A stretch of DNA of 64,000 nucleotides, taken from NCBI RefSeq assembly GCF_058153355.1, contig NZ_CM177019.1. One strand, written 5' to 3'. The notes beneath the pieces were generated by a model. It saw nothing but the letters and a program-made list of their open reading frames with translations. It did not search any database and was not told the DNA's origin. This document shows, piece by piece, positions 1,801 to 59,521 of the stretch; positions within the stretch are counted from its first letter, which is position 1; every line of letters begins with the position of its first letter. The position numbers were made by a program, and so were the translations under genes.

Positions 1801-1829
1801 TCATATTCATTACGATGATTGGTCGCATT

Positions 1830-2762: not shown

Positions 2763-2777
2763 TGAGGAAGTGATTAC

Positions 2778-4100: not shown

Positions 4101-4115
4101 TTAACATCCATTCGC

Positions 4116-4147
4116 AGCCGGTACGCAGTCAGTACCGGCTTTTTTTA
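4116..4147 (+). terminator. rho-independent terminator after mepM
   Basis: gccggtac-gcagtca-gtaccggc hairpin followed by a T-run. Confidence 0.8.
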
Positions 4148-4219
4148 TTTGGTGCGGGGCAAGTTGCGCCGCTACACTATCACCAGATTGATTTTTGCCT
4201 TATCCGAAACTGGAAAAGC

Positions 4220-5191: not shown

Positions 5192-5281
5192 AAAAAGCCT
5201 CTCGCGAGGAGAGGCTTCCGCCGTGTGATAAGTTCAAGTTTGCTTCAGAAGATTCGAAATCTGTTGAACTATCATTGAACT

Positions 5282-5317
5282 GTAGGCCGGATGAGGCGTT
5301 TTCGCCGCATCCGGCAA
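5282..5317. repeat. REP element
   Basis: gtaggccggatgaggcgttttcgccgcatccggcaa between the convergent lpxM and pykA. Confidence 0.65.
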
Positions 5318-5322
5318 CGTAC

Positions 5323-6765: not shown

Positions 6766-6892
6766 GTAATACTCCGTTGACTGAAACAACCAGGTGTTGC
6801 TTGAACATGAAATCCGAATGAAATAACGCCGTTATGGCGATAAAGTAATCTCATTCGGATGTCGTATAAGATTAGAACAGTGACAGTCGTTT

Positions 6893-7762: not shown

Positions 7763-8099
7763 GATGTAAAGAGACTCACGGGTAATGACGATTTCCGCAC
7801 TGAAAGAAATCGAAATGCAGTTTTGACAGATATTACGCCTGTGCGCTGTGTTAATGACAAAAGCAGATAAAAAAGTTGTTATTTTTTTTCATAACATGAT
7901 CAGTGTCAGATTTTTACCCAATGGAAAACGATGATTTTTTTATCAGTTTTGCCGCACTTTGCGCGCTTTTACTGTAATCGCACGGGTGGATAAGCGTTTA
8001 CAGTTTTCGCAAGCTCGTAAAAGCAGTACAGTGCACCGTAAGAAAATTACAAGTATACCCTGGCTTAAGTACCGGGTTAGTTAACTTAAGGAGAATGAC

Positions 8100-9575
8100 A
8101 TGGCGGTAACGCAAACAGCCCAGGCCTGTGACCTGGTCATTTTCGGCGCGAAAGGCGACCTTGCGCGTCGTAAATTGCTGCCTTCCCTGTATCAACTGGA
8201 AAAAGCCAGTCAGCTCAACCCGGACACCCGGATTATCGGCGTAGGGCGTGCTGACTGGGATAAAGCGGCTTATACCAAAGTTGTCCGCGAGGCGCTCGAA
8301 ACTTTCATGAAAGAAACCATTGATGAAGGTTTATGGGATACCCTGAGTGCACGTCTGGATTTTTGTAATCTCGATGTCAATGACACAGCTGCATTCAGCC
8401 GTCTCGGTGCGATGCTGGATCAAAAAAATCGTATCACCATTAACTACTTTGCCATGCCGCCCAGCACTTTTGGTGCAATCTGCAAAGGGCTTGGCGAGGC
8501 AAAACTGAATGCTAAACCGGCACGCGTAGTCATGGAGAAACCGCTGGGGACGTCGCTGGCGACCTCGCAGGAAATCAATGATCAGGTTGGCGAATACTTT
8601 GAGGAGTGCCAGGTTTACCGTATCGACCACTATCTTGGTAAAGAAACGGTGCTGAACCTGTTGGCGCTGCGTTTTGCTAACTCCCTGTTTGTGAATAACT
8701 GGGACAATCGCACCATTGATCATGTTGAGATTACCGTGGCAGAAGAAGTGGGGATCGAAGGGCGCTGGGGCTATTTTGATAAAGCCGGTCAGATGCGCGA
8801 CATGATCCAGAACCACCTGCTGCAAATTCTTTGCATGATTGCGATGTCTCCGCCGTCTGACCTGAGTGCAGACAGCATCCGCGATGAAAAAGTGAAAGTA
8901 CTGAAGTCTCTGCGCCGCATTGACCGCTCCAACGTGCGCGAAAAAACCGTACGCGGGCAATATACTGCGGGCTTCGCCCAGGGCAAAAAAGTGCCGGGAT
9001 ATCTGGAAGAAGAGGGCGCGAACAAGAGCAGCAATACGGAAACCTTCGTGGCGATTCGCGTCGATATTGATAACTGGCGCTGGGCCGGTGTGCCATTCTA
9101 CCTGCGTACTGGTAAACGTCTGCCGACCAAATGTTCTGAAGTTGTGGTCTATTTCAAAACACCTGAACTGAATCTGTTCAAAGAGTCGTGGCAGGATTTG
9201 CCTCAGAATAAACTGACTATCCGTCTACAACCTGATGAAGGCGTGGATATCCAGGTACTGAATAAAGTTCCTGGCCTTGACCACAAACATAACCTGCAAA
9301 TCACCAAGCTGGATTTGAGCTATTCAGAAACCTTTAATCAGACGCATTTAGCAGATGCCTATGAACGTCTGCTGCTGGAAACCATGCGCGGTATTCAGGC
9401 ACTGTTTGTACGTCGTGATGAAGTAGAAGAAGCCTGGAAATGGGTGGACTCCATTACTGAGGCGTGGGCGATGGACAATGATGCGCCGAAACCGTATCAG
9501 GCCGGAACCTGGGGACCGGTTGCCTCGGTGGCGATGATTACTCGTGATGGCCGTTCCTGGAATGAGTTTGAGTAA
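8100..9575 (+). CDS. zwf: glucose-6-phosphate 1-dehydrogenase
   Basis: 491 aa; motifs [11 protein letters not shown] and RIDHYLGKE. Confidence 0.97.
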
Positions 9576-9654
9576 TATCTGCACTCATCCTTTATGGTTA
9601 TTTTACCGGTAACATGATCTTGCACAGATTGTAGAACAATTTTTACACTTTCAG

Positions 9655-9687
9655 GCCTCGTGTGGATTCACCCACGAGGCTTTTTTT
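9655..9687 (+). terminator. zwf terminator
   Basis: gcctcgtgtgg-attca-cccacgaggc followed by ttttttt. Confidence 0.85.
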
Positions 9688-9809
9688 ATTACACTGACTG
9701 AAACGTTTTTGCCCTATGAGCTCCGGTTACAGGCGTTTCAGTCATAAATCCTCTGAATGAAACGCGTTGTGAATCATCCTGCTCTGACAACTCAATTTCA
9801 GGAGCCTTT

Positions 9810-11621
9810 ATGAATCCACAATTGTTACGCGTAACAAATCGAATCATTGAACGTTCGCGCGAGACTCGCTCTGCTTACCTCGCCCGGATAGAACAAGCGA
9901 AAACTTCGACCGTTCATCGTTCGCAGTTGGCATGTGGTAACCTGGCACACGGTTTCGCTGCCTGCCAGCCAGAAGACAAAGCCTCTTTGAAAAGCATGTT
10001 GCGTAACAATATCGCCATCATCACTTCCTATAACGACATGCTCTCCGCACACCAGCCTTATGAACACTATCCAGAAATCATTCGTAAAGCCCTGCATGAA
10101 GCGAATGCGGTTGGTCAGGTTGCGGGCGGTGTTCCGGCGATGTGTGATGGTGTCACCCAGGGGCAGGATGGAATGGAATTGTCGCTGTTAAGCCGCGAAG
10201 TGATTGCGATGTCTGCGGCGGTGGGGCTGTCCCATAACATGTTTGATGGTGCGCTGTTCCTCGGTGTGTGCGACAAGATTGTCCCGGGTCTGACGATGGC
10301 AGCCCTGTCGTTTGGGCATTTGCCTGCGGTGTTTGTGCCGTCAGGTCCGATGGCAAGCGGTTTGCCAAATAAAGAAAAAGTGCGGATTCGCCAGCTTTAT
10401 GCTGAAGGTAAAGTGGACCGCATGGCGCTGCTGGAGTCAGAAGCTGCGTCTTATCATGCTCCAGGGACATGTACTTTCTACGGTACCGCCAATACGAATC
10501 AGATGGTGGTGGAGTTTATGGGGATGCAGTTGCCGGGCTCTTCTTTTGTTCATCCGGATTCTCCGCTGCGCGATGCTTTGACCGCTGCCGCTGCGCGCCA
10601 GGTTACACGCATGACCGGCAATGGTAATGAATGGATGCCGATCGGTAAGATGATCGATGAGAAAGTGGTGGTGAACGGTATCGTTGCACTGCTGGCGACC
10701 GGTGGTTCCACTAACCACACCATGCACCTGGTGGCGATGGCGCGCGCGGCTGGTATTCAGATTAACTGGGATGACTTCTCTGACCTTTCTGATGTTGTAC
10801 CGCTGATGGCACGTCTCTACCCGAACGGTCCGGCCGATATTAACCACTTCCAGGCGGCAGGTGGCGTACCGGTTCTGGTGCGTGAACTGCTCAAAGCAGG
10901 CCTGCTGCATGAAGATGTCAATACGGTGGCAGGCTTTGGTCTGTCTCGTTATACCCTTGAACCATGGCTGAATAATGGTGAACTGGACTGGCGGGAAGGG
11001 GCGGAAAAATCACTCGACAGCAATGTGATCGCTTCCTTCGAACAACCTTTCTCTCATCATGGTGGGACAAAAGTGTTAAGCGGTAACCTGGGCCGCGCGG
11101 TTATGAAAACCTCTGCCGTGCCGGTTGAGAACCAGGTGATTGAAGCGCCTGCGGTTGTTTTTGAAAGCCAGCATGACGTTATGCCGGCCTTTGAAGCGGG
11201 TTTGCTGGACCGCGATTGTGTCGTTGTTGTCCGTCATCAGGGGCCAAAAGCGAACGGAATGCCAGAATTACATAAACTCATGCCGCCACTTGGTGTATTA
11301 TTGGACCGGTGTTTCAAAATTGCGTTAGTTACCGATGGACGACTCTCCGGCGCTTCAGGTAAAGTGCCGTCAGCTATCCACGTAACACCAGAAGCCTACG
11401 ATGGCGGGCTGCTGGCAAAAGTGCGCGACGGGGACATCATTCGTGTGAATGGACAGACAGGCGAACTGACGCTGCTGGTAGACGAAGCGGAACTGGCTGC
11501 TCGCGAACCACACATTCCTGACCTGAGCGCGTCACGCGTGGGAACAGGACGTGAATTATTCAGCGCCTTGCGCGAAAAACTGTCCGGTGCCGAACAGGGC
11601 GCAACCTGTATCACTTTTTAA
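9810..11621 (+). CDS. edd: phosphogluconate dehydratase (Entner-Doudoroff)
   Basis: 603 aa, IlvD/Edd family, followed by eda. Confidence 0.97.
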
Positions 11622-11657
11622 GACGACAAATTTGTAATCAGGCGAGAGAAAACTCTG

Positions 11658-12299
11658 ATGAAAAACTGGAAAACAAGTGCAGAATCAATCCTGACCACCG
11701 GCCCGGTTGTACCGGTTATCGTGGTAAAAAAACTGGAACACGCGGTGCCGATGGCAAAAGCGTTGGTTGCTGGTGGGGTGCGCGTTCTGGAAGTGACTCT
11801 GCGTACCGAGTGTGCAGTTGACGCTATCCGTGCTATTGCCAAAGAAGTGCCTGAAGCGATTGTGGGTGCCGGTACGGTGCTGAATCCACAGCAGCTTGCA
11901 GAAGTCACCGAAGCGGGTGCACAGTTCGCAATTAGCCCGGGTCTGATCGAGCCGCTGCTGAAAGCTGCTACCGAAGGGACTATTCCTCTGATTCCGGGGA
12001 TCAGCACTGTTTCCGAACTGATGCTGGGTATGGACTACGGTTTGAAAGAGTTCAAATTCTTCCCGGCTGAAGCTAACGGCGGCGTGAAAGCCCTGCAGGC
12101 GATCGCGGGTCCGTTCTCCCAGGTCCGTTTCTGCCCGACAGGTGGTATTTCTCCGGCTAACTACCGTGACTACCTGGCGCTGAAAAGCGTGCTCTGCATC
12201 GGTGGTTCCTGGCTGGTTCCGGCAGATGCGCTGGAAGCGGGCGATTACGACCGCATTACTAAGCTGGCGCGTGAAGCTGTAGAAGGCGCTAAGCTATAA
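11658..12299 (+). CDS. eda: KHG/KDPG aldolase
   Basis: 213 aa, matches E. coli Eda. Confidence 0.97.
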
Positions 12300-13974: not shown

Positions 13975-14379
<405 letters not shown>

Positions 14380-24468: not shown

Positions 24469-24622
24469 TTCTTCAATACGATCAAAAATCGGGTAAGGCA
24501 GTATGACTTTCCGTGAGACAGATGCTGGCCAACGTGGGATATTTAACGCGGGTTAACATCGTTGTCAGAGCCGCATGGGTGAGCTGTTGCTACACCCCGG
24601 TATTTCCACCACGGAGGCCAGC

Positions 24623-25750
24623 ATGAACAACAATAACACATTGTACGTCGGGTTAGATGTTCACAAAGAATCGATTACTGTCGCTTATGCTATCAATTCA
24701 GAACCTGTTGAACTGATGGGTAAAATTGGCACATCACCTACTGATATTCAGAATCTTTGTAAACGTCTCAGGTCAAAGTCATCGCAGGTCAGTATCGTTT
24801 ATGAAGCGGGGCCCTGTGGTTATGGACTTTATCGTCGGCTGGTGAAATCCGGTTTTGACTGCATGGTCTGCGCCCCCTCACTTATCCCGAAAAAACCGGG
24901 GGAGCGGGTTAAAACCGATCGCCGTGATGCCATCAGACTTGTGCGTTCACTGCGTGCAGGAGATCTTTCTGCTGTCTACGTACCCGGCATTGAAGATGAG
25001 GCATTCCGGGATTTGGCCCGGGCATGGGCATCTGCCCGCGATGATTTACGGCATGCAAGGCAACGTCTGAAATCGTTTCTTCTGGTTCATGGGGTCCATT
25101 ATGTCGGGCGAGCAGATTGGGGCCCTGCACACCGACGCTGGCTCAGCAAATACTCATTCGAAAGTCCCTGGCGACAATTAGCTTTTGACGAACACCGTCG
25201 TACAATAGAAGACCGGCAGGCACAATGTGAACGGCTGGAATCCGCCCTGAAGGAGGCCGTTACCGAATGGAGGCTGTATCCGGTAGTAGAGGCGCTGCAA
25301 GCCATGCGAGGGATTCAGTTTATTACTGCGGTTGGATTAATTTCTGAACTGGGTGATCTGACCCGTTTTGAACATCCACGACAACTGATGTCATGGTTTG
25401 GTATCACGCCATCAGAATATTCATCGGGTGGAAGCAGACATCAGGGCAGCATTACCAAAGCCGGAAACAGCTATGCCAGAAAGCTATTGGTCGAGGCAGC
25501 GTGGAGTTACCGTCATCCGGCACGCATCAGTCCGGCAATACAAAAAAGGCAGGAAAATTTACCCCGCCCCGTCATTGACAGAGCATGGGATGCTCAACTC
25601 AGGCTTTGTAAGAGGTATCGAAAACTTCAGGCCAAAGGAAAGAATGTCAATATTACAATTGTTGCTGTTGCACGTGAGCTGGCGGGTTTTATCTGGGATA
25701 TGGGCCGAATAGCAATGTCTGTCGCACAACAACCACAATGTCACAAATAA
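24623..25750 (+). CDS. IS110-family (DEDD) transposase
   Basis: 375 aa from MNNNNTLYVGLDVHKESI (ggagg SD at 24613). Has the N-terminal RuvC-like LYVGLDVHK motif and the C-terminal Tnp-domain pattern MRGIQFITAVGLISELGDLTRF...GITPSEYSSGG. Confidence 0.9.
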   Translation: MNNNNTLYVGLDVHKESITVAYAINSEPVELMGKIGTSPTDIQNLCKRLRSKSSQVSIVYEAGPCGYGLYRRLVKSGFDCMVCAPSLIPKKPGERVKTDRRDAIRLVRSLRAGDLSAVYVPGIEDEAFRDLARAWASARDDLRHARQRLKSFLLVHGVHYVGRADWGPAHRRWLSKYSFESPWRQLAFDEHRRTIEDRQAQCERLESALKEAVTEWRLYPVVEALQAMRGIQFITAVGLISELGDLTRFEHPRQLMSWFGITPSEYSSGGSRHQGSITKAGNSYARKLLVEAAWSYRHPARISPAIQKRQENLPRPVIDRAWDAQLRLCKRYRKLQAKGKNVNITIVAVARELAGFIWDMGRIAMSVAQQPQCHK

Positions 25751-25767
25751 AAAATGAGAATAACCAG

Positions 25768-25954
25768 TTCCCTGAAGGCGACGTAGCCCGGTACAAGAGT
25801 AACCCACGTTAGCGCTTGGCGACGGCGGAACAAAGCTGATTCGCGACGTAAGAAAGTGGCAGGCTCATATGACGGACCTCTGTAATGCGGTATCCAACCC
25901 GCGAATATCAGCGTGATTCACCGTCGGATTTACTGCTACGTCGCCCTCAGGGAA
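25768..25954 (+). ncRNA. predicted structured non-coding RNA in the IS 3' end (candidate bridge/seek guide RNA)
   Basis: A 20-bp closing stem pairs 25768..25787 with 25935..25954 (one A/C mismatch). Nested stems pair 25820..25825 with 25921..25926 and 25835..25845 with 25900..25912. No credible ORF. Confidence 0.5.
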
Positions 25955-26013
25955 TTAAACCTAAAAAGAAAATCGTCAAAATTAGAGATTCCGGTTTGAC
26001 ACGGAAAGTCATA

Positions 26014-27942
26014 TCAGCGCTCATCACTGGTCACTCCAAAATTTTCAAGCTTGTTGGCAATCATCATTGCGATGTCAGGGATTGCAGGCGCATAGGCTAT
26101 GCACGCAGGATTCGCACATAAACCGTAAACCGCCGCAATCAACACCTGTTTTTTCCAGTTGAGTTCATCTTCGCCAGTTTCATTATTGCTATCATTATGC
26201 TGATCGCTGCCAGCGTTCTCCGGTAACAAATCATCAGCTTTTTCCGTTTTCTTCGGCTCTTCTTCCTGTGCTTCATCTGGTTTTTTTTCGTCAAAAGTTT
26301 CCTGATAAGTTGCGTCTCCCATCACCGCGCCACAGTCAGGGCAGTTATCCTCGCCAGTCTGATTGCAGGGTGTTCCCTCCTCCGGTTCGCTGTTCTGGTG
26401 CTGTTTATCTTCAGTCTGTCGCACTTCATTTTCCGTTTTTTTGACTTCATTTGAGGAGATATGATGACCGGGAATCCATTTCGAATCATTCGGGTCGCTA
26501 ATCCCTTCAACAAATTCTCCGCGAGAGGCAGCCAGTAATTTGTCTGCATCGACAGGATTTTTGGGCGGAATGTTTTTCCGGGCTTCATGGAGTTCTGCCC
26601 GTAGTTCCTGATATTTCTCATCAACAGAATTTACCTGTGACTGAGCATCCAGCGGCTGCGTGTTCTGATGATGTTCAGTTGCATCCGGTTCCATTGTTTC
26701 AGCTGTTGCCTGTTCATCTGCCATTGCGCCAGATGGCTGCGGTTTTTCTTCATCATCCTGTTTTCCTTCTTCTGTTACACGTTGCGGCATCGGGGCAGAG
26801 GAGCGACCGCAGGCAATATCCACGATTTCCGGATCAGGGTTGGCATGATCGGTTTCAGTCAGTACCTTGTTCAGATATTCAGTGACGTGCGTGGGGATGA
26901 CCTCGATACCAATCGGTGCTTCTTTCACTGACGCAACCACGATGGCGCGGGAATAATCCAGCCCGCCAGGCATGGTGATGAATTTGTCGCGGAAAACAGA
27001 AAAGGGCGGTTTATTTTCAGCGATAATTTCCTCAATGCGTTTAGCGTGTGCCGGATGAAGGTTATAAATGTCCACGTCCATTGAACGAGCCAGTACGCCA
27101 GTGGCTACGTCGCGCGCCAGTGACGTCAGATCGTGAACGAAACCTTCGCCGCGATCGGTGAGGTTCCCGCCGCCAGCATTAGCACCGGAAGCCGTGCGCG
27201 TGATGCGTGAAACACGATTTCCTTTCATCCACTCTTTTGTCAGCAGACCGCGATCGGTGTAGTTGGCATCCCGATATGCTTCGAAAAAAGCAGTCATCAG
27301 TCCCAGATTTGAATTGCCAGGATTAGGGAAAACTTTGTCAGTATCACGCACGAGTTTGTGGAGATCGCGAATTTCCAGCGGGGCGAGCAGGCTGGTTTTA
27401 TGCGAAACAGCCAGGGCAGTAACAGCTGGTAGTTCCTCAGCCCGTGCAATGTGTAATGCCTGGAGTTCGTCGCGTGAAACGTGCGTTACCGGTTTTTCGC
27501 TGCCGTGTTGAGCAAGCCAGCGAATGGGCAGCTCCTGACCAGAAATCGGGAGTAGCATATTCTCCTCAATCTCCGTCATGTCTTCGCCATTAACATTGGT
27601 ATTGTCAGTGCTGGCTGGTTTGTCCTGCGCAGAGGGTGAGGGCGCGATAAATACCATTGTGATGCCATCTTCCCCGCCTTTTTCGTAACGGTTGCAGAAT
27701 TCCGTATCAAACACGCCTTCTGGGGGGAGGTCATCAACAACGGGCAAATTGACGCGAACAGGTTTTTTAAAGTCATCTTCATCGTAGCCTGCATCGTCAA
27801 TCGCAACAGCACCACGGGAGATGGCAATGGATAATTTTTTCGCTTCAGCCCAGTAAAAACCGCCTTTAATACCGAGGCGTTTTCTTACTTTGTCATTTTT
27901 TGCTTCGTAATACAGTGGGTAAACTTGTTTATCGGTGCTCAT
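26014..27942 (-). CDS. large hypothetical early protein with acidic, Cys-containing C-terminal region
   Basis: 642-aa ORF. The C-terminal roughly 230 aa are rich in E/D/Q and contain [13 protein letters not shown]. The stop codon lies immediately at the IS boundary. Confidence 0.6.
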
Positions 27943-31178: not shown

Positions 31179-31203
31179 CAAAAAAAACCCGGCTGTGCCG
31201 GGG
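31179..31203 (-). terminator. terminator after the repressor gene
   Basis: On the minus strand, cccggc-aca-gccggg followed by tttttttt. Confidence 0.75.
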
Positions 31204-32563: not shown

Positions 32564-33319
32564 ATGAGCATGAAACTAATGGCAAAAGCAATGGAAATTA
32601 AAGTGGGTAATCCATTGCGTAAGCTGGTTCTGATTAAGCTGGCTGATAATGCCAGCGATCAGGGCGAGTGCTGGCCCAGCTACCAGTATATCGCTGACCA
32701 GTGCGAGATTAGCAAGCGTTCTGTGATTAATCATATTGCGGCGCTTTGTGAGTCCGGGCTGGTAAAAAAAATCACCCGGAAAGGTGAAAAAGGTAATACA
32801 AGTAATATCTATCTCCTTCATCTGGATGGTGCAGAAAATTTACCGGGGAATAGTGCAAATAATTCGCTACATTGTGCATCAGATGCATCGGGTAGCGCAG
32901 GAGTTGCATCTGTTGCCAGTGCAGGAGTTGCACCCAGAACCAGTCACTCTTTTGAACCAGTCAATGAACCTGATGTTGGTGGATCTGCTGACGCAGATCC
33001 ACAGGTCAGTCATCGCGCAAAAAACAAAATCGACTGGCAGAGGGTTCTGGACAGCTATCACGAAATCCTGCCTGAAATGCCATCAGTGAAAATTCTGACG
33101 GATACCAGGAAAAAAAATCTGCGGACGTTCTGGCAGAAATTCGGTTTTGACCAGCAGCGATGGGAGTCCTATCTGCGATACGTTGCTGAGAACTGTCGCT
33201 GGATGCTGGAAGATCGTCCCAATGGCAGCGGTGGGTTCTGGAAGCGTAAAAACCTGGATTACCTGATCACCGAACGGTGCTATGTCGCTGTCAAAGAGGC
33301 GCGGGCAAATGACAGATAA
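32564..33319 (+). CDS. replication initiator (O-like, N-terminal wHTH)
   Basis: 251 aa. N-terminal helix-turn-helix KLVLIKLADNASDQGECWPSYQYIADQCEISKRSVINHI. Immediately upstream of the helicase gene. Confidence 0.65.
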   Translation: MSMKLMAKAMEIKVGNPLRKLVLIKLADNASDQGECWPSYQYIADQCEISKRSVINHIAALCESGLVKKITRKGEKGNTSNIYLLHLDGAENLPGNSANNSLHCASDASGSAGVASVASAGVAPRTSHSFEPVNEPDVGGSADADPQVSHRAKNKIDWQRVLDSYHEILPEMPSVKILTDTRKKNLRTFWQKFGFDQQRWESYLRYVAENCRWMLEDRPNGSGGFWKRKNLDYLITERCYVAVKEARANDR

Positions 33320-34712
33320 CACCTTTCCGGTGCCATACCGGGTCGATGCCGAACAGGCAGTGCTGGGGTGCCTGATGGTAAACACCGACACTGAGCGTGC
33401 GGGGCTGGTGTATTCGATGCTGAAACCGGAGTCGTTTTACGTTGCGGCGCACAGGGTTATTTTCCGTGAAATTCGCGGACTTTTCCGTGCCGGAAAGCCT
33501 ACGGACCTGCTCAGCCTTGCGAACGTGATCGAGGCGAAAAAACTGGATGCTGAGACTGGTGGCTTTGCGTACCTTGCTGAAATCAGCAGGAGTGCCACGC
33601 TATCGGCGATGGTTCACTACGCCGGGATTGTGCGGGAAAAATCCATCCTGCGGTACGCGGTGGAAAAATTACATGCGTGCATCGGGATCATGAATCAGCC
33701 GACAGACACGAGTGCGACAGAACGACTTGGCGCAGTTCAACAGGTCATTGGCACGGTGGCAGAGTATGCCAGAACAGGAAAAACAGGCGGTCTGCGCCCG
33801 GTAAGTGATGTGGTTAACGACTGGATTGATGATCTTGAGCGTCGCTTTTCCAGCCCGGAGAACGCAGCGGGTCTGACGCTGGGGATTAGCTCTCTGGATC
33901 GGCTTATGGCCCCCAAACATGTGCTACGTGGTTCGCTGGTAGTGATTGGTGCAAGGCCGAAAATGGGTAAAAGCGCCTCGCTGAACAGGATTGTGACGCA
34001 TTTTGCTCTGAATCATCGTCTGCCCACACTGGTATTCACCCTGGAAATGACAGATCGCAGCCTGGTTGAGCGCATGGTTGCGCAGGAGGCGAGGGTAAAT
34101 TCTGAAATTTTTTATGTCGGTGCCAGTGATGACTCGGATATGGCGCGGGCGATGGCGAAAGCCGCAGAACTGGCAGAATCAAACCTGATGATTGACAGCA
34201 CACCAGGGGTAACGTTGTCCCATGTGATCGCTGAATGCCGGAAGGTTAAGCGTCAGCGTGGTGTCGTCGGCCTTGTGGCGATCGATTACCTGACGCTGAT
34301 GAAGGCGGAAGCCGCTGAGCGTCGTGATATTGCTTTCGGGGATATCACAACGGGCTTAAAAAATCTCGCTAAAGAGCTGGACTGCGTGGTTTTACTTCTG
34401 ACGTAACTTAACCGAAAACTCGAGGACAGGGCAGATAAACGCCCCACACCAAGCGACAGTCGCGACACCGGGCAGATTGAACAGGATTGCGATGTGTGGA
34501 TTGGGTTGTACCGGGATGCTGTCTACAACCAGAACGCAGACTCTCAGCTTATGGAGCTGATTCTCCGTCTGAACAGGGAGGGAGCAACAGGAACAGCATA
34601 CGCCCTGATGGATAACGGTTCAGTGACTGATGTCAGCGCAGAGGATGCTGCCAGACGTCTGAGACTTGGTGGTCCGGCACGTAAACCCTACGCACAGACG
34701 GAGGATTTCTGA
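33309..34712 (+). pseudogene. DnaB-like replicative helicase with a single in-frame TAA
   Basis: N-terminal DnaB motif VDAEQAVLGCLM; Walker A GARPKMGKSA. A TAA stop at 34404..34406 sits where DnaB motif ..LSQLNR.. has Gln (VVLLLT*LNRKLEDRADKRPTPSDSRDTGQIEQDCD). The same frame continues to 34712. Confidence 0.8.
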
Positions 34713-34878: not shown

Positions 34879-36078
34879 ATGGAAACCGTTTTTGACGCAC
34901 TGAAAGCAATGGGAAAAGCCACATCGGTAGAACTTGCTGCGCGACTTGATATCAGTCGTGAAGAAGTGCTGAACGAACTATGGGAACTGAAAAAGGCTGG
35001 TTTTGTTGATAAAAGCGCGTACACCTGGCGTGTGGCTGATAACAACGTTCAGCAGGAACAGCCAGCGCAGGCAGAACTGCCGGAAGAAACCACCACAGCA
35101 ACAGTAGCGAAAATCTCAGAGTGCGATTTAACCGCGACGATTGAACAACGCGGACCACAAACGGCTGATGAACTGGCTACATTGTTTGGTACCACATCAC
35201 GTAAAGTGGCTTCAACGCTGGCAATGGCAATCAGCAAAGGTCGTCTGATTCGTGTAAACCAGAACGGTAAATTTCGTTACTGCATGCCGGGCGATAATTT
35301 ACCAGCAGAGCCGAAAGCTGCATCGGTAGCGGAAACTGATGGTAAGGCCTTTCCTCAGCCCGCAGGTGTTGCATTACCAGTACAGGAGGCTGCAACACAG
35401 GAAGATATTAAAACAGAAACGGTGGCGGACATTGTGCAGTCGCTGCCATCGTTTACTGAAACGCGAGCTGATGATTTGATTTTGCCATCGCTGCATATGG
35501 CAAACAGCGAACTGCGTCGGGCGAAAAATCATGTCCAGAAGTGGGAGCGAGTCTGCGCCGCGCTGCGGGAGCTGAACAAGCCGGGATATTGTTCGACAGA
35601 TTTTCGATTCCTCCAGTCGTATTGTGTCGGAAAAGTGATTACCGGAGGCGCTTATGGCAAGAGTATTTACACAAGAAGAGCGGGAAAAATTAAGGGGCAG
35701 GTTGTTCAACTCGTGCGCCAGAGCGGTCGCGAGACGTTACGGCAACTGGAAGCGAAAACAGGTGCTACAAGATATCTGTTGAGTGTTCTCGCCAGAGAGC
35801 TGGTTGCCAGTGGCGATGTATACAACTCTGATTACGGGTTATTCTCGTCTGAACGAGCTCGTAAGGACTGGCAAAACGCCCGCAAAAAACTCTCAAGGGC
35901 AAAACTGAAGAAAAAAACATCTGTGGTTGATCCGGACCTTATCTGGTCGTTACCAGACGGCGAAATACGCCGCTACGACAGGCGTATGAACATAATTTGC
36001 CGTGAATGCCGGAAAAGCGAAGCTATGCAGCGCATATTGTCGTTTTATCAGGGGAATTTTCAGGAGGCGGCGCAGTGA
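34879..36078 (+). CDS. multi-wHTH phage protein (DUF1627-like)
   Basis: 399 aa with three winged-helix-like segments ([28 protein letters not shown]; [30 protein letters not shown]; [29 protein letters not shown]). Confidence 0.55.
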
Positions 36079-40823: not shown

Positions 40824-40847
40824 GCCCGCTTTATGCGGGTTTTTTTA
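40824..40847 (+). terminator. tR'-like terminator downstream of Q
   Basis: cccgc-tttat-gcggg followed by ttttttt. Confidence 0.7.
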
Positions 40848-45096: not shown

Positions 45097-46716
45097 ATGC
45101 CGTTACCATTCCCCTTCGATTTTAAACATCCTGATTACCAGATGGTTTTTGAATGGCGGATGGAACGCCTACAGCGCATTCGCCAGAATCCTGAAATATT
45201 GCCTGCACTAAAACAGTTTTACCGTACCAACCCGGCTCAGTTCATTATCGACTGGGGCATGACAACGGACCCGCGTAATATTGATTATGGCCTGCCGGTG
45301 ACCATTCCGTTTTTACTCTTCCCTAAGCAGGAGGAGTGGAGCCACTGGATTATGGAACGCTGGAGCAATCGGGAGAATGGTATTACCGAAAAATCCCGTG
45401 AAATGGGGCTCAGTTGGACCGCGATCGGACTGGCCTGCTCGCTTTGTCTCTTCAACAAAGAAATGGTTATCGGTTTCGGCTCCCGTAAAGAGGAATACGT
45501 CGACAGCACCGGTGACCCGAAAGCACTGTTCTGGAAGGCGCGCAAGTTCGTGGAAACACTACCTGTAGAGTTTCGCGGTTCGTGGAGCGAGAAGAAGCAC
45601 GCGCCATATATGCGTGTTGAGTTTCCTGAAACTGGCGCGGTTATCAAAGGTGAGGCTGGCGATAATATCGGTCGTGGTGACCGTACGACCCTTTATTTTG
45701 TGGATGAGGCTGCTTTTCTCCAGCGACCATTACTTATTGATGCCGCGCTTTCTCAGACAACCCGATGTCGTATCGATCTCTCATCGGTTAACGGCATGAA
45801 CAACCCCTTCGCACAGAAGCGGCACAGTGGAAAAATCCCGGTGTTTACGTTTCACTGGCGTAGCGATCCGCGTAAAGACGATGAGTGGTATCACAAGGAG
45901 TGCGAGAAAATTGATAACCCAGTCATCGTTGCCCAGGAACTGGATCTTAATTACCAGGCATCAGCAGAAGGCATCCTGATCCCCTCAGAATGGGTACAGG
46001 CTGCGGTTGATGCACATATCAGACTGGGCATTCAGCCCGGCGGCCAACGGCTTGGTGCAATGGATGTCGCCGACGAAGGGCGGGATAAAAACGCCTGTTC
46101 GCTCCGTTATGGCATCCTGCTGAATGACGTACAGGAGTGGTCAGGTAAGGGGAGTGACATCTATGACTCTGTGGTTAAGGTTTTTGGTCTGTGCGATGAC
46201 TTTGGTGCCGATGAGTTTCGCTTTGATGAGGACGGATTGGGTGCTGGCGTTCGTGGTGATGCGCGCGCTATCAACGAACTGCGTGAAGCGGAGGGCATCT
46301 GTCAAATCACCGCCACTCCATTCCGGGGCAGCGGGAGCGTGTTTCATCCTGAAAATGAAGCTGTTCCCGGTGATAATGGTAAACCGGCTCGTCTGAATAA
46401 GGACTTTTTTGTCAATGCCAAAGCCCAGGGGGGGTGGCATCTTCGCAAATTATTCCGCAATACATTTCGTGCACTACAGGGTATGGAGTATGACCCGGAT
46501 GAGATTATTTCCATCAGCAGCACAATGGAAAATAAAGACCGGCTGTTGATGGAGCTGTCACAACCTACCTGGTCAAAAAATGCCACCGGAAAAATTCTTG
46601 TGGATAAGCAACCTGACGGAACGAAATCTCCAAACCTGGCTGATTCTGTGATGATTGCTTATGCCCCGATGGAAATGCCCATCGTAATTTCTGATGACTT
46701 TATGGAGTGGATCTGA
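45097..46716 (+). CDS. terminase large subunit
   Basis: 539 aa; ATPase Walker-B-like LYFVDEAAF plus a C-terminal nuclease region; follows terS. Confidence 0.88.
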
Positions 46717-47186
46717 TGTGGCCGTTTAAACGAAAAGAACCGTCAGCGCCGGCGGTACCGGACAAACAACCTGAACCACAGCCACCGGAAATTAACGATG
46801 AGGTGATTGCTTCCGTCCGGCAGAAACCACGGAGGGAGTTTGTTCGCTATGAGCCACCACCGGGCGTTATCCCGGCACCGGTTCGCGACGCTGTGCTGGC
46901 AATGGATGCAACACCGTATGACACCCTGAACAGTCATTATCCTGATTTTGTTTATGGTGGTTTCCCGGGCTATCCGTATCTGGCACTTCAGGCGCAGTTA
47001 CCGGAGTACCGGCGTATGGTCAGTGTGCTTGCCGAGGAGATGACCCGTAAGTGGATAAAGGTTAAGGCGGTCGGAGAAGGGGACGACAGCCACGCGTCAC
47101 GCATAGCGCAGCTTACTGACGCACTGGAGCACTATAACGTACAGGACGTTTTCAGACTGGCGATTGAGCACGACGGCTTTTTCGGG
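46707..47186 (+). pseudogene. portal protein, 5' fragment (interrupted by an IS66-family element)
   Basis: The reading frame ...AIEHDGFFG runs into the IS left end at 47187 and resumes after 51093. Confidence 0.8.
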
Positions 47187-47305
47187 GTAAGCGTCTTATC
47201 AGGACCGTCTGGCAAATTCCCGATGCTTTGGACAAAGTATCCACCACTAAATTAATAGTGGGTGATAAAAATGTCAGATATACAAAAAAATGCCTCTCCG
47301 GGAAG

Positions 47306-48731
47306 TAATGCCAGTCAGTTAAGCAACTGACTGGCTCTTTTTCGGGGCTGTGGGGTATTTCCAGGGCCTCTCCTTTACCACTCTCGGGAAGGCCCTTTCC
47401 CTTCTTGTCGGTAATTTCACAAGTTGTCCCATACTTGCAAGATCGCGCATCAGCTCCGGTATACGTCCCGGTGAAGCGCCCTGCAATGTCATCAGCATTC
47501 TCATCACCATTCCGCATGATTCTGAGAAACTCAGTTGATTCGGCCAGTAACCTTTCAGATGTTCCGCCATTTTAATCATCTGATATCTCACCAGATTATA
47601 AGCCAGTAAGACACCCCACAGCTCTTGCTCCACAAGCTCCGGCTTTTTACTTCTCAGCGTCAGCCTGCTCAGTTGCATCGTCTGTTTTATCTCCCTGTAT
47701 CCCAGTTCGATTTCCCAGCGATGACTGTACAGATCCGCCATTTCTCCTCCGGGGAAGCGCATGGCGTCCGTCATCGACGTCAGCAGATGGCAGACTTTTC
47801 CTTTGCGCGTCACGGTCAGCAGGCGGGCTGTCACTTCATTTCCCAGTCCCGGCCACTTTTTTCGTGCCTGCGGGCTGGTTTTCAGCTTCACCAGATGATC
47901 GCCTTTACCCAGTTTTCTGATCTCTTCATATTGCGCTCCCTTTCTGAGAGGTATCATCCAGTGGCGGTGTTCTCCCGCCAGGCTCCAGGCATTTAACAGT
48001 CCCAGTGAGTAATAACCTTTATCCATTAACGTCAGAGTGTTATCGCCGGTTTGTTCTATAAGTTGCTCAGCAAGCTCATTTTCGCTGTTCTTCATCGTGC
48101 CGAAGGCTGCAGCCGTCAGCAGATGGCTGGTCAGTTCCATCTGGCAGACCATTTTGACCTGCGGGTAGAGCGCCGGGTTCCCGGCATGTGTCTGGCGGGG
48201 GAAGGCTGCATCGTTCTCTGGTGTATCCGGTGTGCGCCAGAACACACCATCGATGGCCAGCAGGGTCAGGCCGCACCAGTGCGGATGCGGCGTGGCGTTA
48301 TGCCAGAGCTGCGCTGTTTTCGTGAACACGCGGCGGACAGCCTCACTTCCCAGGCGCTGGCGGGCCTGAATAACGGCACTGGGGGCAACGAAGGGGCGAT
48401 TGCCCGGCAGCATGATGTCCAGGCGATTCACAATCTGGTGAAGAGGTTCTTTACGCTCAAGCGCCATGCCAACAATACACCAGACCATCATTTCGAGGGG
48501 AAGACGGCGCTTGCGTAGCGTTACAGTACCTGATTCGGCAAGGCAACGAGAGATGAGTTCGGGGTCGAGGTAATCCCCCAGAGAAGTCAGTGGGTTACGC
48601 AGAGAATCGTAACGGGATACCAGATCAAGAGCCTGTCCAATGTGCATAAAAAAATCCGGAAACAAGTGAGCGTTTCCGGATTCTTACACAGCCACTGGAT
48701 CGGTCAACTGATCCTTAACTGATCGGCATTA
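47306..48731 (-). mobile_element. IS4 (1426 bp)
   Basis: Terminal inverted repeats taatgcc.. / ..ggcatta. Exact 12-bp target duplication ctctccgggaag at 47294..47305 and 48732..48743. Length equals the canonical IS4 length. Confidence 0.95.
47319..48647 (-). CDS. insG: IS4 transposase InsG
   Basis: 442 aa from [20 protein letters not shown]..., matches remembered K-12 InsG. Confidence 0.95.
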
Positions 48732-49124
48732 CTCTCCGGGAAGGCCTAAAGGGTGCCTGAATTATCCTCCTGAATTCAAACAACGACTCATAGAAGCATC
48801 ATTCCAGCCAGGTGTTTCAATTTCCAGACTGGCCCTGGACAATGGTATTAATGCCAATCTGTTGTTCAAATGGCGTCAGAAATGGCGGCAGGGGAAGATA
48901 AAATTGCCATCATCAGAATCAGGCAGAGAATCTCAGTTAATTCCTGTCACTATTGATGCCCAACTCCCAACTGCTCCGGCTAATGAGCCACTGACCGCAA
49001 GACCGTCAGTAACACCGGAAATACACAGCATCTCCTGTGAGATTACGTTCAGAAACGGCACCCTTCGGTTGAACGGGGCAGTGAATGAAAATCTGCTGTC
49101 CTTGCTTATACAGGAGCTGAGACG

Positions 49125-49472
49125 GTGATATCTCTCCCTGCAGGTTCGCGTATCTGGCTGGTTGCAGGTATCACCGATATGCGAAATGGCTTTAACGGCC
49201 TGGCCTCAAAAGTTCAGAACGTCCTGAAGGATGACCCGTTCTCCGGGCATCTGTTCATCTTCCGCGGACGCCGGGGTGACCAGATAAAAGTGTTGTGGGC
49301 TGACAGTGACGGACTGTGCCTCTTCACCAGACGCCTGGAGCGGGGCCGCTTCGTCTGGCCGGTCACCCGTGACGGCAAGGTGCACCTTACTCCGGCCCAG
49401 TTATCCATGCTTCTTGAGGGCATCGACTGGAAACACCCGAAACGAACGGAACGCGCTGGCATCCGCATATAA
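49125..49472 (+). CDS. IS66-family orfB (TnpB)
   Basis: 115 aa, MISLPAGSRIWLVAGITDMRNGFNGLA... typical IS66 Orf2. Confidence 0.9.
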   Translation: MISLPAGSRIWLVAGITDMRNGFNGLASKVQNVLKDDPFSGHLFIFRGRRGDQIKVLWADSDGLCLFTRRLERGRFVWPVTRDGKVHLTPAQLSMLLEGIDWKHPKRTERAGIRI

Positions 49473-49491
49473 CCCGTTGTAAAGTGAGGAT

Positions 49492-51063
49492 ATGGACACC
49501 TCACTTGCTCATGAGAATGCCCGCCTGCGGGCACTGTTGCAGACGCAACAGGACACCATCCGCCAGATGGCGAAATACAACCGCCTGCTCTCACAGCGGG
49601 TGGCGGCTTATGCTTCCGAAATCAACCGGCTGAAGGCGCTGGTTGCAAAACTGCAGCGCATGCAGTTCGGTAAAAGCTCAGAAAAACTTCGTGCAAAAAC
49701 CGAACGGCAGATACAGGAAGCACAGGAGCGAATCAGCGCTCTTCAGGAAGAAATGGCGGAAACGCTGGGTGAGCAATATGACCCGGTACTGCCATCTCCC
49801 CTGCGCCAGTCTTCAGCCCGTAAACCGTTACCTGCCTCACTTCCCCGTGAAACCCGGGTCATCCGTCCGGAAGAGGAATGCTGCCCGGCCTGTGGTGGCG
49901 AACTCAGTTCTCTGGGATGTGATGTGTCAGAGCAACTGGAGCTTATCAGCAGCGCCTTTAAGGTTATCGAAACACAACGTCCGAAACTGGCCTGTTGCCG
50001 GTGCGACCATATCGTGCAGGCTCCGGTGCCTTCAAAACCCATTGCACGCAGTTATGCCGGAGCGGGGCTTCTGGCCCATGTTGTCGCTGGAAAATATGCA
50101 GACCATCTGCCGTTATACCGCCAGTCAGAAATATACCGTCGTCAGGGCGTGGAGCTGAGCCGTGCCACACTGGGGCGCTGGACAGGTGCTGTTGCTGAAC
50201 TGCTGGAACCGCTGTATGACATCCTGCGCCAGTATGTGCTGATGCCCGGTAAAGTCCATGCCGATGATATCCCCGTTCCGGTCCAGGAGCCGGGCAGCGG
50301 TAAAACAAGGACTGCCCGGCTGTGGGTCTACGTTCGTGATGACCGTAACGCCGGTTCGGAAATGCCTCCGGCGGTCTGGTTCGCGTACAGCCCGGACCGG
50401 AAAGGTATCCATCCACAGAATCATCTGGCCGGTTACAGCGGAGTGCTTCAGGCCGATGCTTACGGTGGTTACCGGGCGTTGTACGAATCCGGCAGAATAA
50501 CGGAAGCCGCATGTATGGCTCATGCCCGGAGAAAAATCCACGATGTGCATGCAAGAGTGCCCACCGACATCACCACGGAAGCCCTGCAGCGTATCGGTGA
50601 ACTGTATGCCATCGAGGCAGAGGTCCGGGGCTGTTCAGCAGAACAGCGTCTGGCGGCAAGAAAAGCCAGAGCCGCGCCACTGATGCAGTCACTGTATGAC
50701 TGGATACAGCAACAGATGAAAACACTGTCGCGTCACTCGGACACGGCAAAAGCGTTCGCATACCTGCTGAAACAGTGGGATGCACTGAACGTGTACTGCA
50801 GTAATGGCTGGGTGGAAATCGACAACAACATCGCAGAGAACGCCTTACGGGGAGTGGCCGTAGGCCGGAAAAACTGGCTCTTCGCGGGTTCTGACAGCGG
50901 TGGTGAACATGCTGCGGTGTTGTACTCGCTGATCGGCACATGCCGTCTGAACAATGTGGAGCCAGAAAAGTGGCTGCGTTACGTCATTGAACATATCCAG
51001 GACTGGCCGGCAAACCGGGTACGCGATCTGTTGCCCTGGAAAGTTGATCTGAGCTCTCAGTAA
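49492..51063 (+). CDS. IS66-family transposase (orfC)
   Basis: 523 aa; N-terminal leucine-zipper-like region, CPACGG zinc motif, DDE-type core. Confidence 0.9.
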
Positions 51064-51101
51064 ATATCAATACGGTTCTGGCGAGCCGCTTACTTTTCGG
51101 G

Positions 51102-52172
51102 CGAGGGCAGATTTATATTGATGTGCGTTCGCCATCGGGTATATCTGCCTGGACTGACCCGGCGGAGCTGGGATCCGGACTGTTTATTTCCGACAAAAAA
51201 ATCCCGAAAGGTTCCCTGCTGGGGCTTCGTGTTATTGAACCCGTCTGGACGTATCCGGGTATATATAGCGCGGATAATCCGCTGAGTGATGATTTTTACC
51301 GTCCGTCCGAATGGTACGTAATGGGAAAAACGGTTCACGCCAGCCGCATGATTGATCTGATCTCCCGTCCGGTTCCGGACATGCTGAAGCCGGCCTACAA
51401 CTTTGGCGGCCTGTCACTGGTTCAGATTGCTGAGCCTTATGTTGATAACTGGCTGCGAACACGCGACAGCGTGGGCGATATGCTGCATTCGTTTTCGCTG
51501 AGCGGGATTAAGACGGATATGACACAGGTATTAAGTGGTAAAAGGGACCCGAATTACGCAAAACGCGCGGAGTTGTTTAACCGTACCCGTGATAACCGCG
51601 GGCTGCTGATGCTGGACAAGACGAACGAAGAGTTTTTCCAGTTCAACACTCCCCTGAGCGGCCTCGACACCCTTCAGGCGCAGGCACAGGAACACATGTT
51701 CTTTGTCAGTGCCATACCGTCCGTAAAATTCGCCGGGCTGAGCCCAACGGGACTGAATGCGTCGAGTGAGGGTGAAATCCGGGTGTTTTACGACACCATT
51801 GCTGCACTTGCCACCCGTCTTCTGAAGAAACCGCTGAAAAAGGTGCTGGATATTATCCAGTTGTCTGAGTTCGGCGATATCGATCCTGATATCACGTTTG
51901 AATTTGAACCCCTGCATGAGCTGACGCGCGAGCAACTGGCGAATATCCGTAAAACTGAGGCGGAAACGGATCAGATTTATGAGAGCACCGGAGCAGTGAC
52001 CAATAACGAAGTACGCGAACGGCTGGCGACTGCGCAGGACAGCCCGTACAGCGGTATTGACCTGAGCGGGGACATCGAAATTGACGACACTGAAATTGAC
52101 AACACCGAAGAAAATCCGCCGCAAGGCCCGAATGCAGACCCTGAGGCGGATTTCACCCAACGCGGGGATTGA
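51102..52172 (+). pseudogene. portal protein, 3' fragment (DUF1073-type)
   Basis: Continues the frame of 46707..47186 after the IS and its duplication. Confidence 0.8.
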
Positions 52173-52902
52173 GGCCTGGTACCGCAGACAACTGGATAAT
52201 GCCGTCAGTGGGATGCACAACAGTGTACTTTACTGGCTGCGGGCTGAGTACCGTAAAACAGACCTCGCGCAGGATGCGTCCCCCGTTAACCTGATGCGTG
52301 GTGCCATGCAGCAACTTGCCCGGCGCTGGCAGAAAAATTTTGACGAAATGGCCCTGCGGCTGGCGAGGCGGTTTGCCGGTGATGTCCTGAAAAACAGCGA
52401 TGCGTCACTGTACACTGCGCTCCGTGATGCCGGGTTTACGGTTCCTTTCCGTATGACAACGGAGATGAATACCGCACTTCAGGCCAGCATCACGGAGAAT
52501 GTGAACCTCATTCGCTCCATCCCGCAGCAACATCTCACCCAGGTGGAAACACTGGTCATGCAGTCTGTTGGCCGGGGACGTGACCTGAAAACGCTGACCG
52601 ATGAACTGGAAAAACGTTACGGCATCACACGACGGCGCGCGGCGCTGATTGCCCGCGACCAGAACAATAAGGCAACGTCGGTAATGCAGGCCGCCAGACA
52701 GCGTTCGGTGGGTATCACTGAAGGTGTCTGGAGGCATTCCCGCGCGGGTAAAACATGGCGTCCGTCGCATGTGAAGGCGAACGGTAAACGGTTTGACCTG
52801 CGAAAGGGGATGTTTCTGGATGGTAAGTGGGTACTGCCGGGCGAAGAAATCAACTGCCGGTGTGGCTGGGAGGCCGTTATTCCCGGACTGGAGAAAAAAT
52901 GA
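52132..52902 (+). CDS. head morphogenesis protein (Mu F / SPP1 gp7 family)
   Basis: C-terminal motif ...[44 protein letters not shown]. Start uncertain (track ORF starts at 52081). Confidence 0.75.
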
Positions 52903-57526: not shown

Positions 57527-58056
57527 CCCTCTCCGTTACGGAAAGCGCTCTTTATCAGGCCCTCGGTGATTATCTCCGGGGGCTTTTTTCTGATGCCGGG
57601 ATTGAACGAACGCAGCAGAACCAGGTCCCGATGCCTCAGGGGAATTTCATCACCATGACGGGCATTGATGTTACCGGATTATCCACTGCGGTAGTGGCAT
57701 ATTCTGCGCCAGCGCAGGCTGGTGAGGGCTCTCAGCATATCACCCGTACCACAAAATGGCGTTGCCAGCTTGATTTCTACGGCCCTCACGCGGCAGATAA
57801 CGCGCAGGTGCTGGCAACGCTTTTCCGGTCTGAATTTTCCGTACGGCTTTTCCGGCAGGGCGGTGGGCTGATTTCCCCGCTGTATTGCTCAGAGCCCTTT
57901 AACACCACATTCCCCAACGGTCAGCAACAGTATGAACCGCGCTGGACGCTTGATATTCAGATGCAGATTAACCCTGTGGTCACAACTTCCCTGATGTTTT
58001 TTGACAACGTGATCACCCGGACAACGGAGGCTGATAATGCCAATTCCACTCAGTAA
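57511..58056 (+). CDS. tail terminator-like protein (hypothetical)
   Basis: 181 aa, immediately upstream of the sheath gene. Confidence 0.45.
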
Positions 58057-59521
58057 AGATGTACAGATAAATCCCGGTGTGCTGGCTGTGGCGGGTAATG
58101 CCGTCGATCTTAACGGCCTGCTGTTGACCAGTAATCCGTTACTTCCGGTCGGCACTGTGGTTCCGTTTTCCTCTCCGGATGATGTGGCCGCGTATTTTGG
58201 TGCATTATCCGATGAGTACGCACGCGCTCAGCTTTATTTCCAGGGCTTCAAAAATGCCACCAGGACGCCGGGGCAATTGTTGTTTTCCCGTTTCAGTCCT
58301 GCCCCATCGGCGGCCTGGTTACGTAGCGGTTCGTTTAAGGGCGCGACTGTTGAACAGCTACAAAAACTTTCCGGCACGCTGATGCTGAGTATTAACGGGA
58401 AAAGCGTCAGCATTGAAGTGAATTTTAACGGTGTCGCCAGCTTCGCCGCTGCTGCAACGGCACTACAGACAGCGCTGACCGCAGCAGTGGCTACAGTGGT
58501 ATTCGATACCACACAGAATGCTTTTGTCATTACTGTCGCCGGGGCGAAACCCGAGAGTACCACGATAACGTTCGGCAGTGGATCGGCAGCAGAACTCCTG
58601 AAGATGACCAGTAACACCGGTGCGGTGATATCCCGGGGCGCGCCTGTATCTGATGTCCCTGACACAATGGCAGCCATTAAGGCCGCTTCCCAGCAATGGG
58701 CGGGTTTTTCCACGGTATCTGAGGTCACTGACGAGCAACACCTGGCGTTTTCTGCATGGGCAAACGGGCAGGGCAAGCGTTACTTTTATGTGGCATGGAC
58801 AACCAGCGGCAACGCCAGAGTAAAAGGCAGTACTGAACACATCGCTTACCAGATAATTGCTGTCAATAACTACAGCTCTGTTGTACCTGTTTTCGCGACT
58901 GATGGTAACCGGGCTGCAGCGGTACTGGGGTATGCAGCGTGCCTTGATTTTGTCCGACCAGAGGGGCGTGTATCATTCAAGTTCCGCGAGTATGAGGGGC
59001 TGGCCGCTGATGTTACCAGTGGCAGCGATTATGATGCGCTGATCGCCGCAGGTTACAATTTCTACGGAAAATATGCGGAAAACAGTGTGGTGGAAGATTA
59101 CTGGGCGGATGGCACTATTACCGGTGATTTTAAATGGCTGGACAGTTTCTGCGGGCAAATCTGGCTGAATGCCAGTTTGCAGGGGGCGGTGATCGCGTTA
59201 TTCAAGTCAAACCAGACGATCCCCTACAACAATGAAGGGCGGGCGCTGGTTGCAGCGTCAATGAGTGACGTTATCCAGCAGTACAAACGCTGGGGAGGGA
59301 TCCGTGAAGGGGTGACACTGACGGAGGCGCAGAAGAAACAGATTAACAATGTTGTGGGGGCAGATGTTTCTTCAACGTTGTTTGCCACCGGCTATTACCT
59401 GTATATCGGCGATATGCTTCCCTCTTTGCGGGCAACCCGTAGCAGTCCGTCCTGTACGCTCTGGTACTGTGACGGCGGTAGTATCCAGAAACTTGTTATT
59501 GCATCCACGGAGGTCCAGTAA
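58037..59521 (+). CDS. contractile tail sheath protein (DUF3383-type)
   Basis: 494 aa, followed by a tube-sized gene, a chaperone pair and the tape measure gene. Confidence 0.65.

Follow-up and report, generated by a model that had tools for sequence, protein, structure and literature searches.

Nested insertion of IS4 in an IS66-family element within a prophage portal gene

Structure of the nested insertion

The predicted portal gene of a prophage in a 64-kb stretch of bacterial DNA (64,000 nucleotides of contig NZ_CM177019.1, assembly GCF_058153355.1; here, the window) is split by an insertion sequence (IS) element of the IS66 family, whose first gene, tnpA (orfA), is in turn split by a copy of IS4. 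Each of the two elements is bounded by a perfect target duplication, and computational removal of both restores the two interrupted reading frames exactly. The structure is very probably the product of two successive ordinary transpositions, of the IS66-type element into the portal gene and then of IS4 into tnpA. Coordinates of all features are collected in Table 1, where loci from other sequences are given by our own handles (L001 and so on).

The outer element starts with GTAAGCG and ends with CGCTTAC, as found both by direct reading and by a script; this terminus is typical of the IS66 family. Its terminal inverted repeats, both of which begin with GTAAGCG, are imperfect, matching at 19 of 26 positions. 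The 8-bp duplication TTTTCGGG abuts the element on either side, and the chance of an exact 8-mer repeat at such a fixed position is 4^-8 (~1.5e-5). After excision of IS4 in silico, all three IS66 open reading frames (ORFs) are present with the Pfam domains of the family; TnpC, the DDE transposase, matches LZ_Tnp_IS66, zf-IS66, DDE_Tnp_IS66 (4.4e-104) and DDE_Tnp_IS66_C. The tnpA-tnpB-tnpC gene order, the overlap of the tnpA stop with the tnpB start (GTGA), the termini, the length of the duplication and the full set of domains are all shared with the IS66 family, for which the three-gene organisation and the 8-bp duplication have been described (PMC6778807).

Within the family, the closest transposases bear the label "ISCro1 family" in the NCBI annotation pipeline, and the element appears as a mosaic in comparison with ISCro1-type elements of E. 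coli. Its tnpB-tnpC-right end portion (49125-51093) is 96.7-99% identical to them, whereas the left end and tnpA (47187-49124) are of another type and unrelated at the DNA level; TnpA has 139 amino acids here and 216 in the ISCro1 type. The breakpoint in similarity coincides with the overlap of the tnpA stop and the tnpB start. The type with the short tnpA is rare among complete E. coli genomes, being found in nine of them at 93-96% identity.

The inner element lies within the outer one in the opposite orientation and breaks tnpA inside codon 12, after nucleotide 35 of the gene. It is flanked by the 12-bp duplication CTCTCCGGGAAG, for which the chance of an exact repeat at a fixed, element-abutting position is 4^-12 (~6e-8); IS4 characteristically duplicates 11-13 bp, and elsewhere in our sample its duplications are 11-14 bp long. 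Its DNA is 99.7-99.9% identical to the IS4 copies in E. coli loci L001-L003. The transposase matches Nterm_IS4 (3.1e-33) and DDE_Tnp_1 (9e-32) in Pfam, and both versions of the protein, from either start codon, are exact matches to "IS4-like element IS4 family transposase", found on at least 760 to 1000 contigs. IS4 is reportedly about 1426 bp long, with 18-bp imperfect terminal repeats. In length, terminal repeats, duplication and transposase the inner element is like IS4 of Escherichia coli (IS4 family, IS4 subgroup), and nothing substantial differs; by these features it is IS4 itself, and it is intact and probably active.

For the restoration, each element was excised together with one copy of its duplication. 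This yields a 1551-nt portal frame, open across 47186/51102, and a 139-amino-acid TnpA ORF, both uninterrupted by a stop. An earlier preliminary description of this region, made from the letters of the DNA, had claimed that removal of both elements restores both frames exactly, and had placed the split of the portal gene by an IS66-family element with an 8-bp duplication at the same coordinates. Reading of the sequence and a script bear this out; they agree likewise with the 1426-bp IS4 and 12-bp duplication reported in the first IS66 gene, narrowing the break to the inside of codon 12; the element indeed has no intact orfA. The restored portal product would have 516 amino acids from GTG 46707, the first position of the range given there, but annotated homologues start at ATG 46716, which gives 513.

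Uninterrupted copies of both targets are available, and failure of the restored frames to align with such copies had been named beforehand as a refutation; this failure did not occur. Overall, the restored sequences align with intact homologues without gaps, at 99.8-99.97% nucleotide identity, and the split genes are free of secondary lesions. Another E. coli carries an intact copy of the IS66-type element on an F-like plasmid contig (L126:5017-7485). The restored element equals it in length and differs from it by five mismatches, all of them synonymous and within tnpB, and by no gaps. This copy encodes an intact 139-amino-acid TnpA identical to the restored one, contains CTCTCCGGGAAG once, and is flanked on both sides by an 8-bp duplication of its own, CACCGGAC.

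On the portal side, the restored segment from the large terminase subunit gene (terL) through the Mu F-like gene, 3891 bp, shows one mismatch and no gaps against a public contig (L127). When 917 nt across the restored portal junction are used as a query, seven complete E. coli chromosomes match it in one ungapped piece at 99.7-99.8% identity; there, the portal is annotated as a 1542-nt DUF1073 gene. In E. coli FDAARGOS_943 (L133), the orthologous prophage, its portal uninterrupted, is integrated at the corresponding place in the chromosome (copD-yebY | integrase), and when the flanks from the window are placed on this portal they overlap by exactly 8 bp, corresponding to a single TTTTCGGG. The octamer occurs once in each of the uninterrupted portals L127, L004, L130 and L133.

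The identity of the interrupted gene rests on several lines of evidence. The restored product matches PF06381 (Phage_portal_3, formerly DUF1073) over the full profile (2-357 of 357; 284.2 bits with the cut-off at 33.8; E 1.5e-84), and it resembles portals of solved structure, namely 9b41 gp19 (3.9e-33) and the E217 portal 8fvh (1.2e-32), as well as 7kln and 8hds. Residues 1-479 align unbroken across the excision junction with Klebsiella phage proteins (59% identity) and with annotated Ralstonia phage portals (45%). The gene order in the window, as in L004 and L133, is terS, terL, portal, Mu F-like, DUF2213, decoration protein, major capsid. The full-profile match and the canonical gene position are shared with PF06381 portals such as Pseudomonas phage E217 gp19, whereas the nearest sequenced phage proteins, those of Klebsiella temperate phages, are only 59% identical, and the gene is split here. 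Judging by profile and position, the interrupted gene is a phage portal gene. Exact-protein look-ups with the truncated portal products (N-terminal, 179 and 182 amino acids; C-terminal, 349 amino acids) and with the whole restored portal found none on record. The terL product has no Pfam match, but the exact protein is on record as "TerL protein", and its gene precedes the portal in L004, L127 and L133 as well.

Two contigs assembled from short reads of other samples, L128 (SRR8656992) and L129 (GCA_043012465.1), show 100% identity with the window and break off at the boundary between the portal and the IS66-type element, either precisely there, after TTTTCGGG, or 9 nt short of it. Assemblies typically break in this way at a repeat, and the portal insertion is therefore probably shared with other isolates of the lineage.

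Table 1. Features of the nested insertion, neighbouring genes, and IS4 sites in other IS66-family tnpA genes
Feature	Sequence	Position	Strand	Remarks
terL, large terminase subunit	Window	45097-46716	+	539 aa; directly 5' of portal, overlaps portal start
Portal, 5' fragment	Window	46716-47186	+	Codons 1-157
8-bp duplication, left copy	Window	47179-47186		TTTTCGGG; abuts IS66 left end
IS66-family element	Window	47187-51093	+	3907 bp with IS4, 2469 bp without IS4
IS66 left inverted repeat	Window	~47187-47212
tnpA (orfA), 5' fragment	Window	47271-47305	+	Codons 1-11 and two bases of codon 12
Occupied IS4 site in tnpA	Window	47284-47310		One of at least four homologous spots hit by IS4
12-bp duplication, left copy	Window	47294-47305		CTCTCCGGGAAG; abuts IS4 end
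IS4	Window	47306-48731	-	Exactly 1426 bp
IS4 18-bp terminal inverted repeats	Window	47306-47323, 48714-48731		TAATGCCAGTCAGTTAAG and TAATGCCGATCAGTTAAG; 16/18 positions matching
IS4 transposase gene	Window	47319-48665	-	Intact; 448 aa from TTG, 442 aa from ATG at 48647
12-bp duplication, right copy	Window	48732-48743		CTCTCCGGGAAG; abuts IS4 end
tnpA, 3' fragment	Window	48744-49128	+	Rest of codon 12 to stop; HTH_Tnp_1, 6.5e-11
tnpB	Window	49125-49472	+	Intact, 115 aa; TnpB_IS66, 7.1e-40; exact protein on record
tnpC, DDE transposase	Window	49492-51063	+	Intact, 523 aa; exact protein encoded in L126
IS66 right inverted repeat	Window	~51068-51093
8-bp duplication, right copy	Window	51094-51101		TTTTCGGG; abuts IS66 right end
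Portal, 3' fragment	Window	51102-52172	+	Codons 158-513 and stop
Mu F-like head-morphogenesis gene	Window	52213-52902	+	Phage_Mu_F; exact 229-aa protein on record
IS110-family transposase gene	Window	24575-25750		DEDD_Tnp_IS110 and Transposase_20
IS4 site, ISCro1 type	L001/L002	~2975-3000		AAAAAAACGT[CCCCGGCGGCCC] (duplication in brackets)
IS4 site, large plasmids of enteroinvasive-type E. coli	L003	~2975-3000		Duplication CCCCGGCGGCCT; e.g. pCFSAN029787_01 (carries ospD1)
IS4 site, decayed relic	L131/L132	~4595-4620		In islands adjoining tRNA-Phe; junction shifted by 1 nt

Order of the insertions and alternative histories

The simplest history has two steps. The 2469-bp IS66-family element would first have entered the portal gene after codon 157, duplicating TTTTCGGG, and IS4 would then have entered codon 12 of its tnpA, duplicating CTCTCCGGGAAG; IS4 selects its targets by strong arm preferences, for an A-run followed, after 3-4 nt, by a GC-rich and often palindromic core of 11-14 bp, which becomes the duplication. 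The preliminary description called this order unambiguous. It is indeed favoured, and the most parsimonious, but the adjective was too strong, as other histories are conceivable in principle.

Several observations weigh against it. No intermediate that would prove the order, with the portal interrupted by the IS66-type element free of IS4, is available. The junction between the portal and the IS66-type element was not found in complete E. coli genomes, GTDB species representatives or metagenome contigs; the window-type junction between the IS66-type element and IS4 was not found in complete E. coli genomes, metagenome contigs or viral contigs. In addition, the sequence entered by IS4 is only half of a typical target, its right arm scoring poorly (-1.9 bits) and having no T-run (see below). 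None of the complete E. coli genomes covers 80% or more of the nested structure.

The best-surviving alternative is that the IS66-type element and the IS4 within it moved into the portal as a pre-formed 3.9-kb unit, mobilised in trans by TnpA (with TnpB and TnpC) of an intact sister copy. Composites of this kind do exist: IS66-family tnpA genes interrupted by IS4 occur in several chromosomal and plasmid contexts in E. coli, and such a junction is present in 78 of 5426 complete genomes. Moreover, both ends and the tnpB and tnpC genes of the element in the window are intact, and intact sister copies are present in other strains. However, the window-type junction was seen nowhere else in complete E. 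coli genomes, metagenome contigs or viral contigs, and this history depends on trans-mobilisation of a 3.9-kb IS66 derivative, which is not known to occur. The known composites themselves argue for repeated, separate entry of IS4. Between the ISCro1-type composites L001 and L002, which lie at two different loci, the IS66 parts agree at 100% and 99.7% (0 of 2334 nt and 1 of 365 nt differ), whereas the IS4 copies differ at six positions, which fits independent IS4 hits better than movement of a unit; and the junction in a decayed relic is offset by 1 nt, again pointing to independent hits on a hot spot. We consider the movement of a pre-formed unit improbable.

That the resident copy gained its IS4 from a further, already interrupted copy of the IS66-type element, through homologous recombination or gene conversion, appears less probable still. 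Recombination between IS copies is known, and IS4 at L034, and two copies at L037 and L098, are found without matching duplications, indicating IS-mediated rearrangement. This route, however, requires an additional, unobserved interrupted copy: BLAST of the 64-kb window against itself reveals no second copy of either the IS66-type element or IS4, and no other instance of the junction is known in the collections scanned. The alternatives that invoke a pre-formed unit or recombination, taken together, thus claim only a small share of the probability. Finally, IS elements are a classic source of mis-assembly, yet wrong threading of repeats into the portal gene is hardly credible and was rejected, because at each level of nesting a perfect duplication, of 8 bp or 12 bp, directly abuts the inverted repeats of the element, which a mis-join would not create, and because other, independent assemblies are interrupted at this very position of the portal.

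Two successive transpositions remain the preferred history, and both would be recent. The preliminary description reached the same view of their age from the undecayed duplications, which are a weak clock, since a stretch of only 20 bp can go unchanged over very long periods. Better support comes from the near-identity to uninterrupted copies: one mismatch in the 3891 bp of the portal region and five synonymous ones in the 2469 bp of the IS66-type element, together with the lack of secondary lesions, argue for recency.

Condition of the prophage

The interrupted portal frame continues into the left end of the IS66-type element and reaches a stop at 47255. The portal would then be made only as a 157-residue N-terminal stub followed by 22 residues encoded by the IS, and no procapsid nucleation and no DNA packaging would be expected of such a prophage. 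The IS66-type element, too, would have lost TnpA, and since, in addition, an antisense IS4 now lies between its promoter and tnpB-tnpC, it is probably non-autonomous. IS679 is reported to require all three genes.

The host prophage is lambdoid, with a myovirus-type tail, and is integrated beside yebY in a chromosome of E. coli/Shigella type; window positions 1-12000 correspond to the E. coli edd-zwf-pyk-lpxM region, with 98.9% identity at best. The closest prophages are those of enteroinvasive-type E. coli, and the setting fits a lineage similar to Shigella or enteroinvasive E. coli (EIEC) that is absent from the set of complete E. coli genomes.

Comparison with the orthologous prophage of FDAARGOS_943 reveals further differences. 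An IS110-family element of 1518 bp (24498-26015), absent from that prophage, lies within the first codons of a Gam-like gene; the corresponding empty site in FDAARGOS_943 reads AAAATCGGGTAAG|CGCTCATCAC. Its subterminal inverted repeats are ATGACTTTCCGTG and CACGGAAAGTCAT; a target duplication is not apparent. The gene for a DnaB-type replicative helicase (33309-34712) has TAA at codon 366 of 467 (34404-34406), where FDAARGOS_943 has CAA, and is otherwise 98.9% identical to its orthologue; as read from this comparison, the nonsense codon disables the prophage at a second point, independently. Lastly, positions 34879-36078 hold a single 399-residue ORF with the DUF1627 and DUF977 domains, where FDAARGOS_943 has two genes (253 and 130 amino acids); the two genes may have fused here, or the annotations may differ.

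The same late region is found in other strains at 99.4-99.9% identity to positions 44.9-64 kb of the window, and there it has been hit by other IS elements. In the O121 strain 201805972 (L130, 3562000-3611900), these are IS600, IS421, IS1 and an IS66-family element in the sheath (DUF3383) gene, which is intact in the window (58037-59521); in FDAARGOS_943 (L133, 820000-869900), IS600 interrupts the lysozyme gene. As these strains have an intact portal and carry IS insertions elsewhere, decay is independent in each lineage. These are genomes of enteroinvasive-type E. coli, and the prophage resembles the cryptic prophages, full of IS elements, that are found in Shigella and enteroinvasive E. coli, the difference being that here the portal is hit, and that the hit is nested. 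By its lesions the prophage is decaying and cryptic, and the nested insertion is an instance of ordinary prophage decay by mobile elements, a kind of event that is thoroughly known.

IS4 targets in IS66-family tnpA genes

The classical target consensus of IS4 is reported to be AAA-N20-TTT; here, a target profile was derived from data. We collected the flanks of at least 120 IS4 ends (exact match to the 30 terminal nucleotides) in species-representative genomes of Enterobacterales; the resulting training set has at least 112 distinct left arms and at least 24 right arms. A single genome can contribute several sites to it, and some of the copies may belong to close relatives of IS4. Among the matches listed, A occupies 77-84% of positions -20 to -18, within an A-rich stretch from -24 to -16; positions -13 to -9 are C-rich, G prevails at -4 (73%) and -1 (85%), and the opposite side is a mirror image. 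The typical IS4 target is therefore an A-run, a GC-rich stem-loop and a T-run, resembling a bidirectional terminator, with the 11-14-bp duplication spanning the loop and the inner stem. Strong arm specificity has been reported for elements of the IS4 subgroup (PMC2266710).

The target in the window, AAAAAAATGC[CTCTCCGGGAAG]GCCTAAAGG (duplication in brackets), differs from the usual one in that it is a half-site, with the A-run arm only, and lies within a coding region, whereas the usual palindrome lies between genes. Its left arm scores 14.2 bits, compared to the training median of 10.2. By the two-arm score, it takes ranks 1-2 among 2457 positions of the 2469-bp IS66-type element (two adjacent registers) and rank 46 among the 62,497 positions of the IS4-free window. 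The top-scoring potential IS4 targets in the window, at 40826-40838, 31190-31202 and 14038-14049, are terminator-like palindromes with A-run, stem-loop and T-run, and all are unoccupied.

BLAST searches found IS4 also within tnpA of other, divergent IS66-family elements of E. coli. In the ISCro1 type, IS4 lies about 100 codons into the gene for the 216-residue TnpA, and protein alignment places this point opposite codon 12 of the gene for the 139-residue TnpA, just before the helix-turn-helix domain. The same geometry, A7-N3-[duplication], is shared by all the homologous spots (Table 1).

Counting such events requires some care. Most of the 78 junctions in complete E. coli genomes represent a single inherited relic. 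About 68 of them, at 91.7% identity, were considered as a set of many independent events, and this was rejected, for the two that were inspected, L131 and L132, turned out to be the same relic beside a tRNA-Phe integrase. The relic was accordingly counted as one old event, and plasmid-borne copies of the 91.7% band were counted apart, as the pINV type. On this count IS4 has apparently hit the homologous spot in tnpA at least four times independently: in the window, in the ISCro1 type, in the type carried by large plasmids of EIEC-type strains, and in the tRNA-Phe relic. Our literature search found no description of recurrent IS4 hits in IS66-family tnpA genes.

Whether the 5' part of tnpA, with its A7 run, three nucleotides and GC-rich dozen, is a conserved preferred landing site, through which IS4 would repeatedly and specifically knock out members of the IS66 family, is in our estimation an evenly balanced question. 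The conserved A7/GC-rich patch may also serve the IS66 elements themselves in some way, and its likeness to the terminator-like targets of IS4 may stem from that role.

The nested insertion has little significance beyond annotation: it would mark the prophage as cryptic and indicate in which sequence the IS elements were active in its lineage. Its two junctions could be used as lineage-specific markers, for typing or dating. The sole point of wider interest is the apparently recurrent IS4 hit, guided by the strong target preference of IS4, which would be a modest case, open to testing, in which one mobile element inactivates another.

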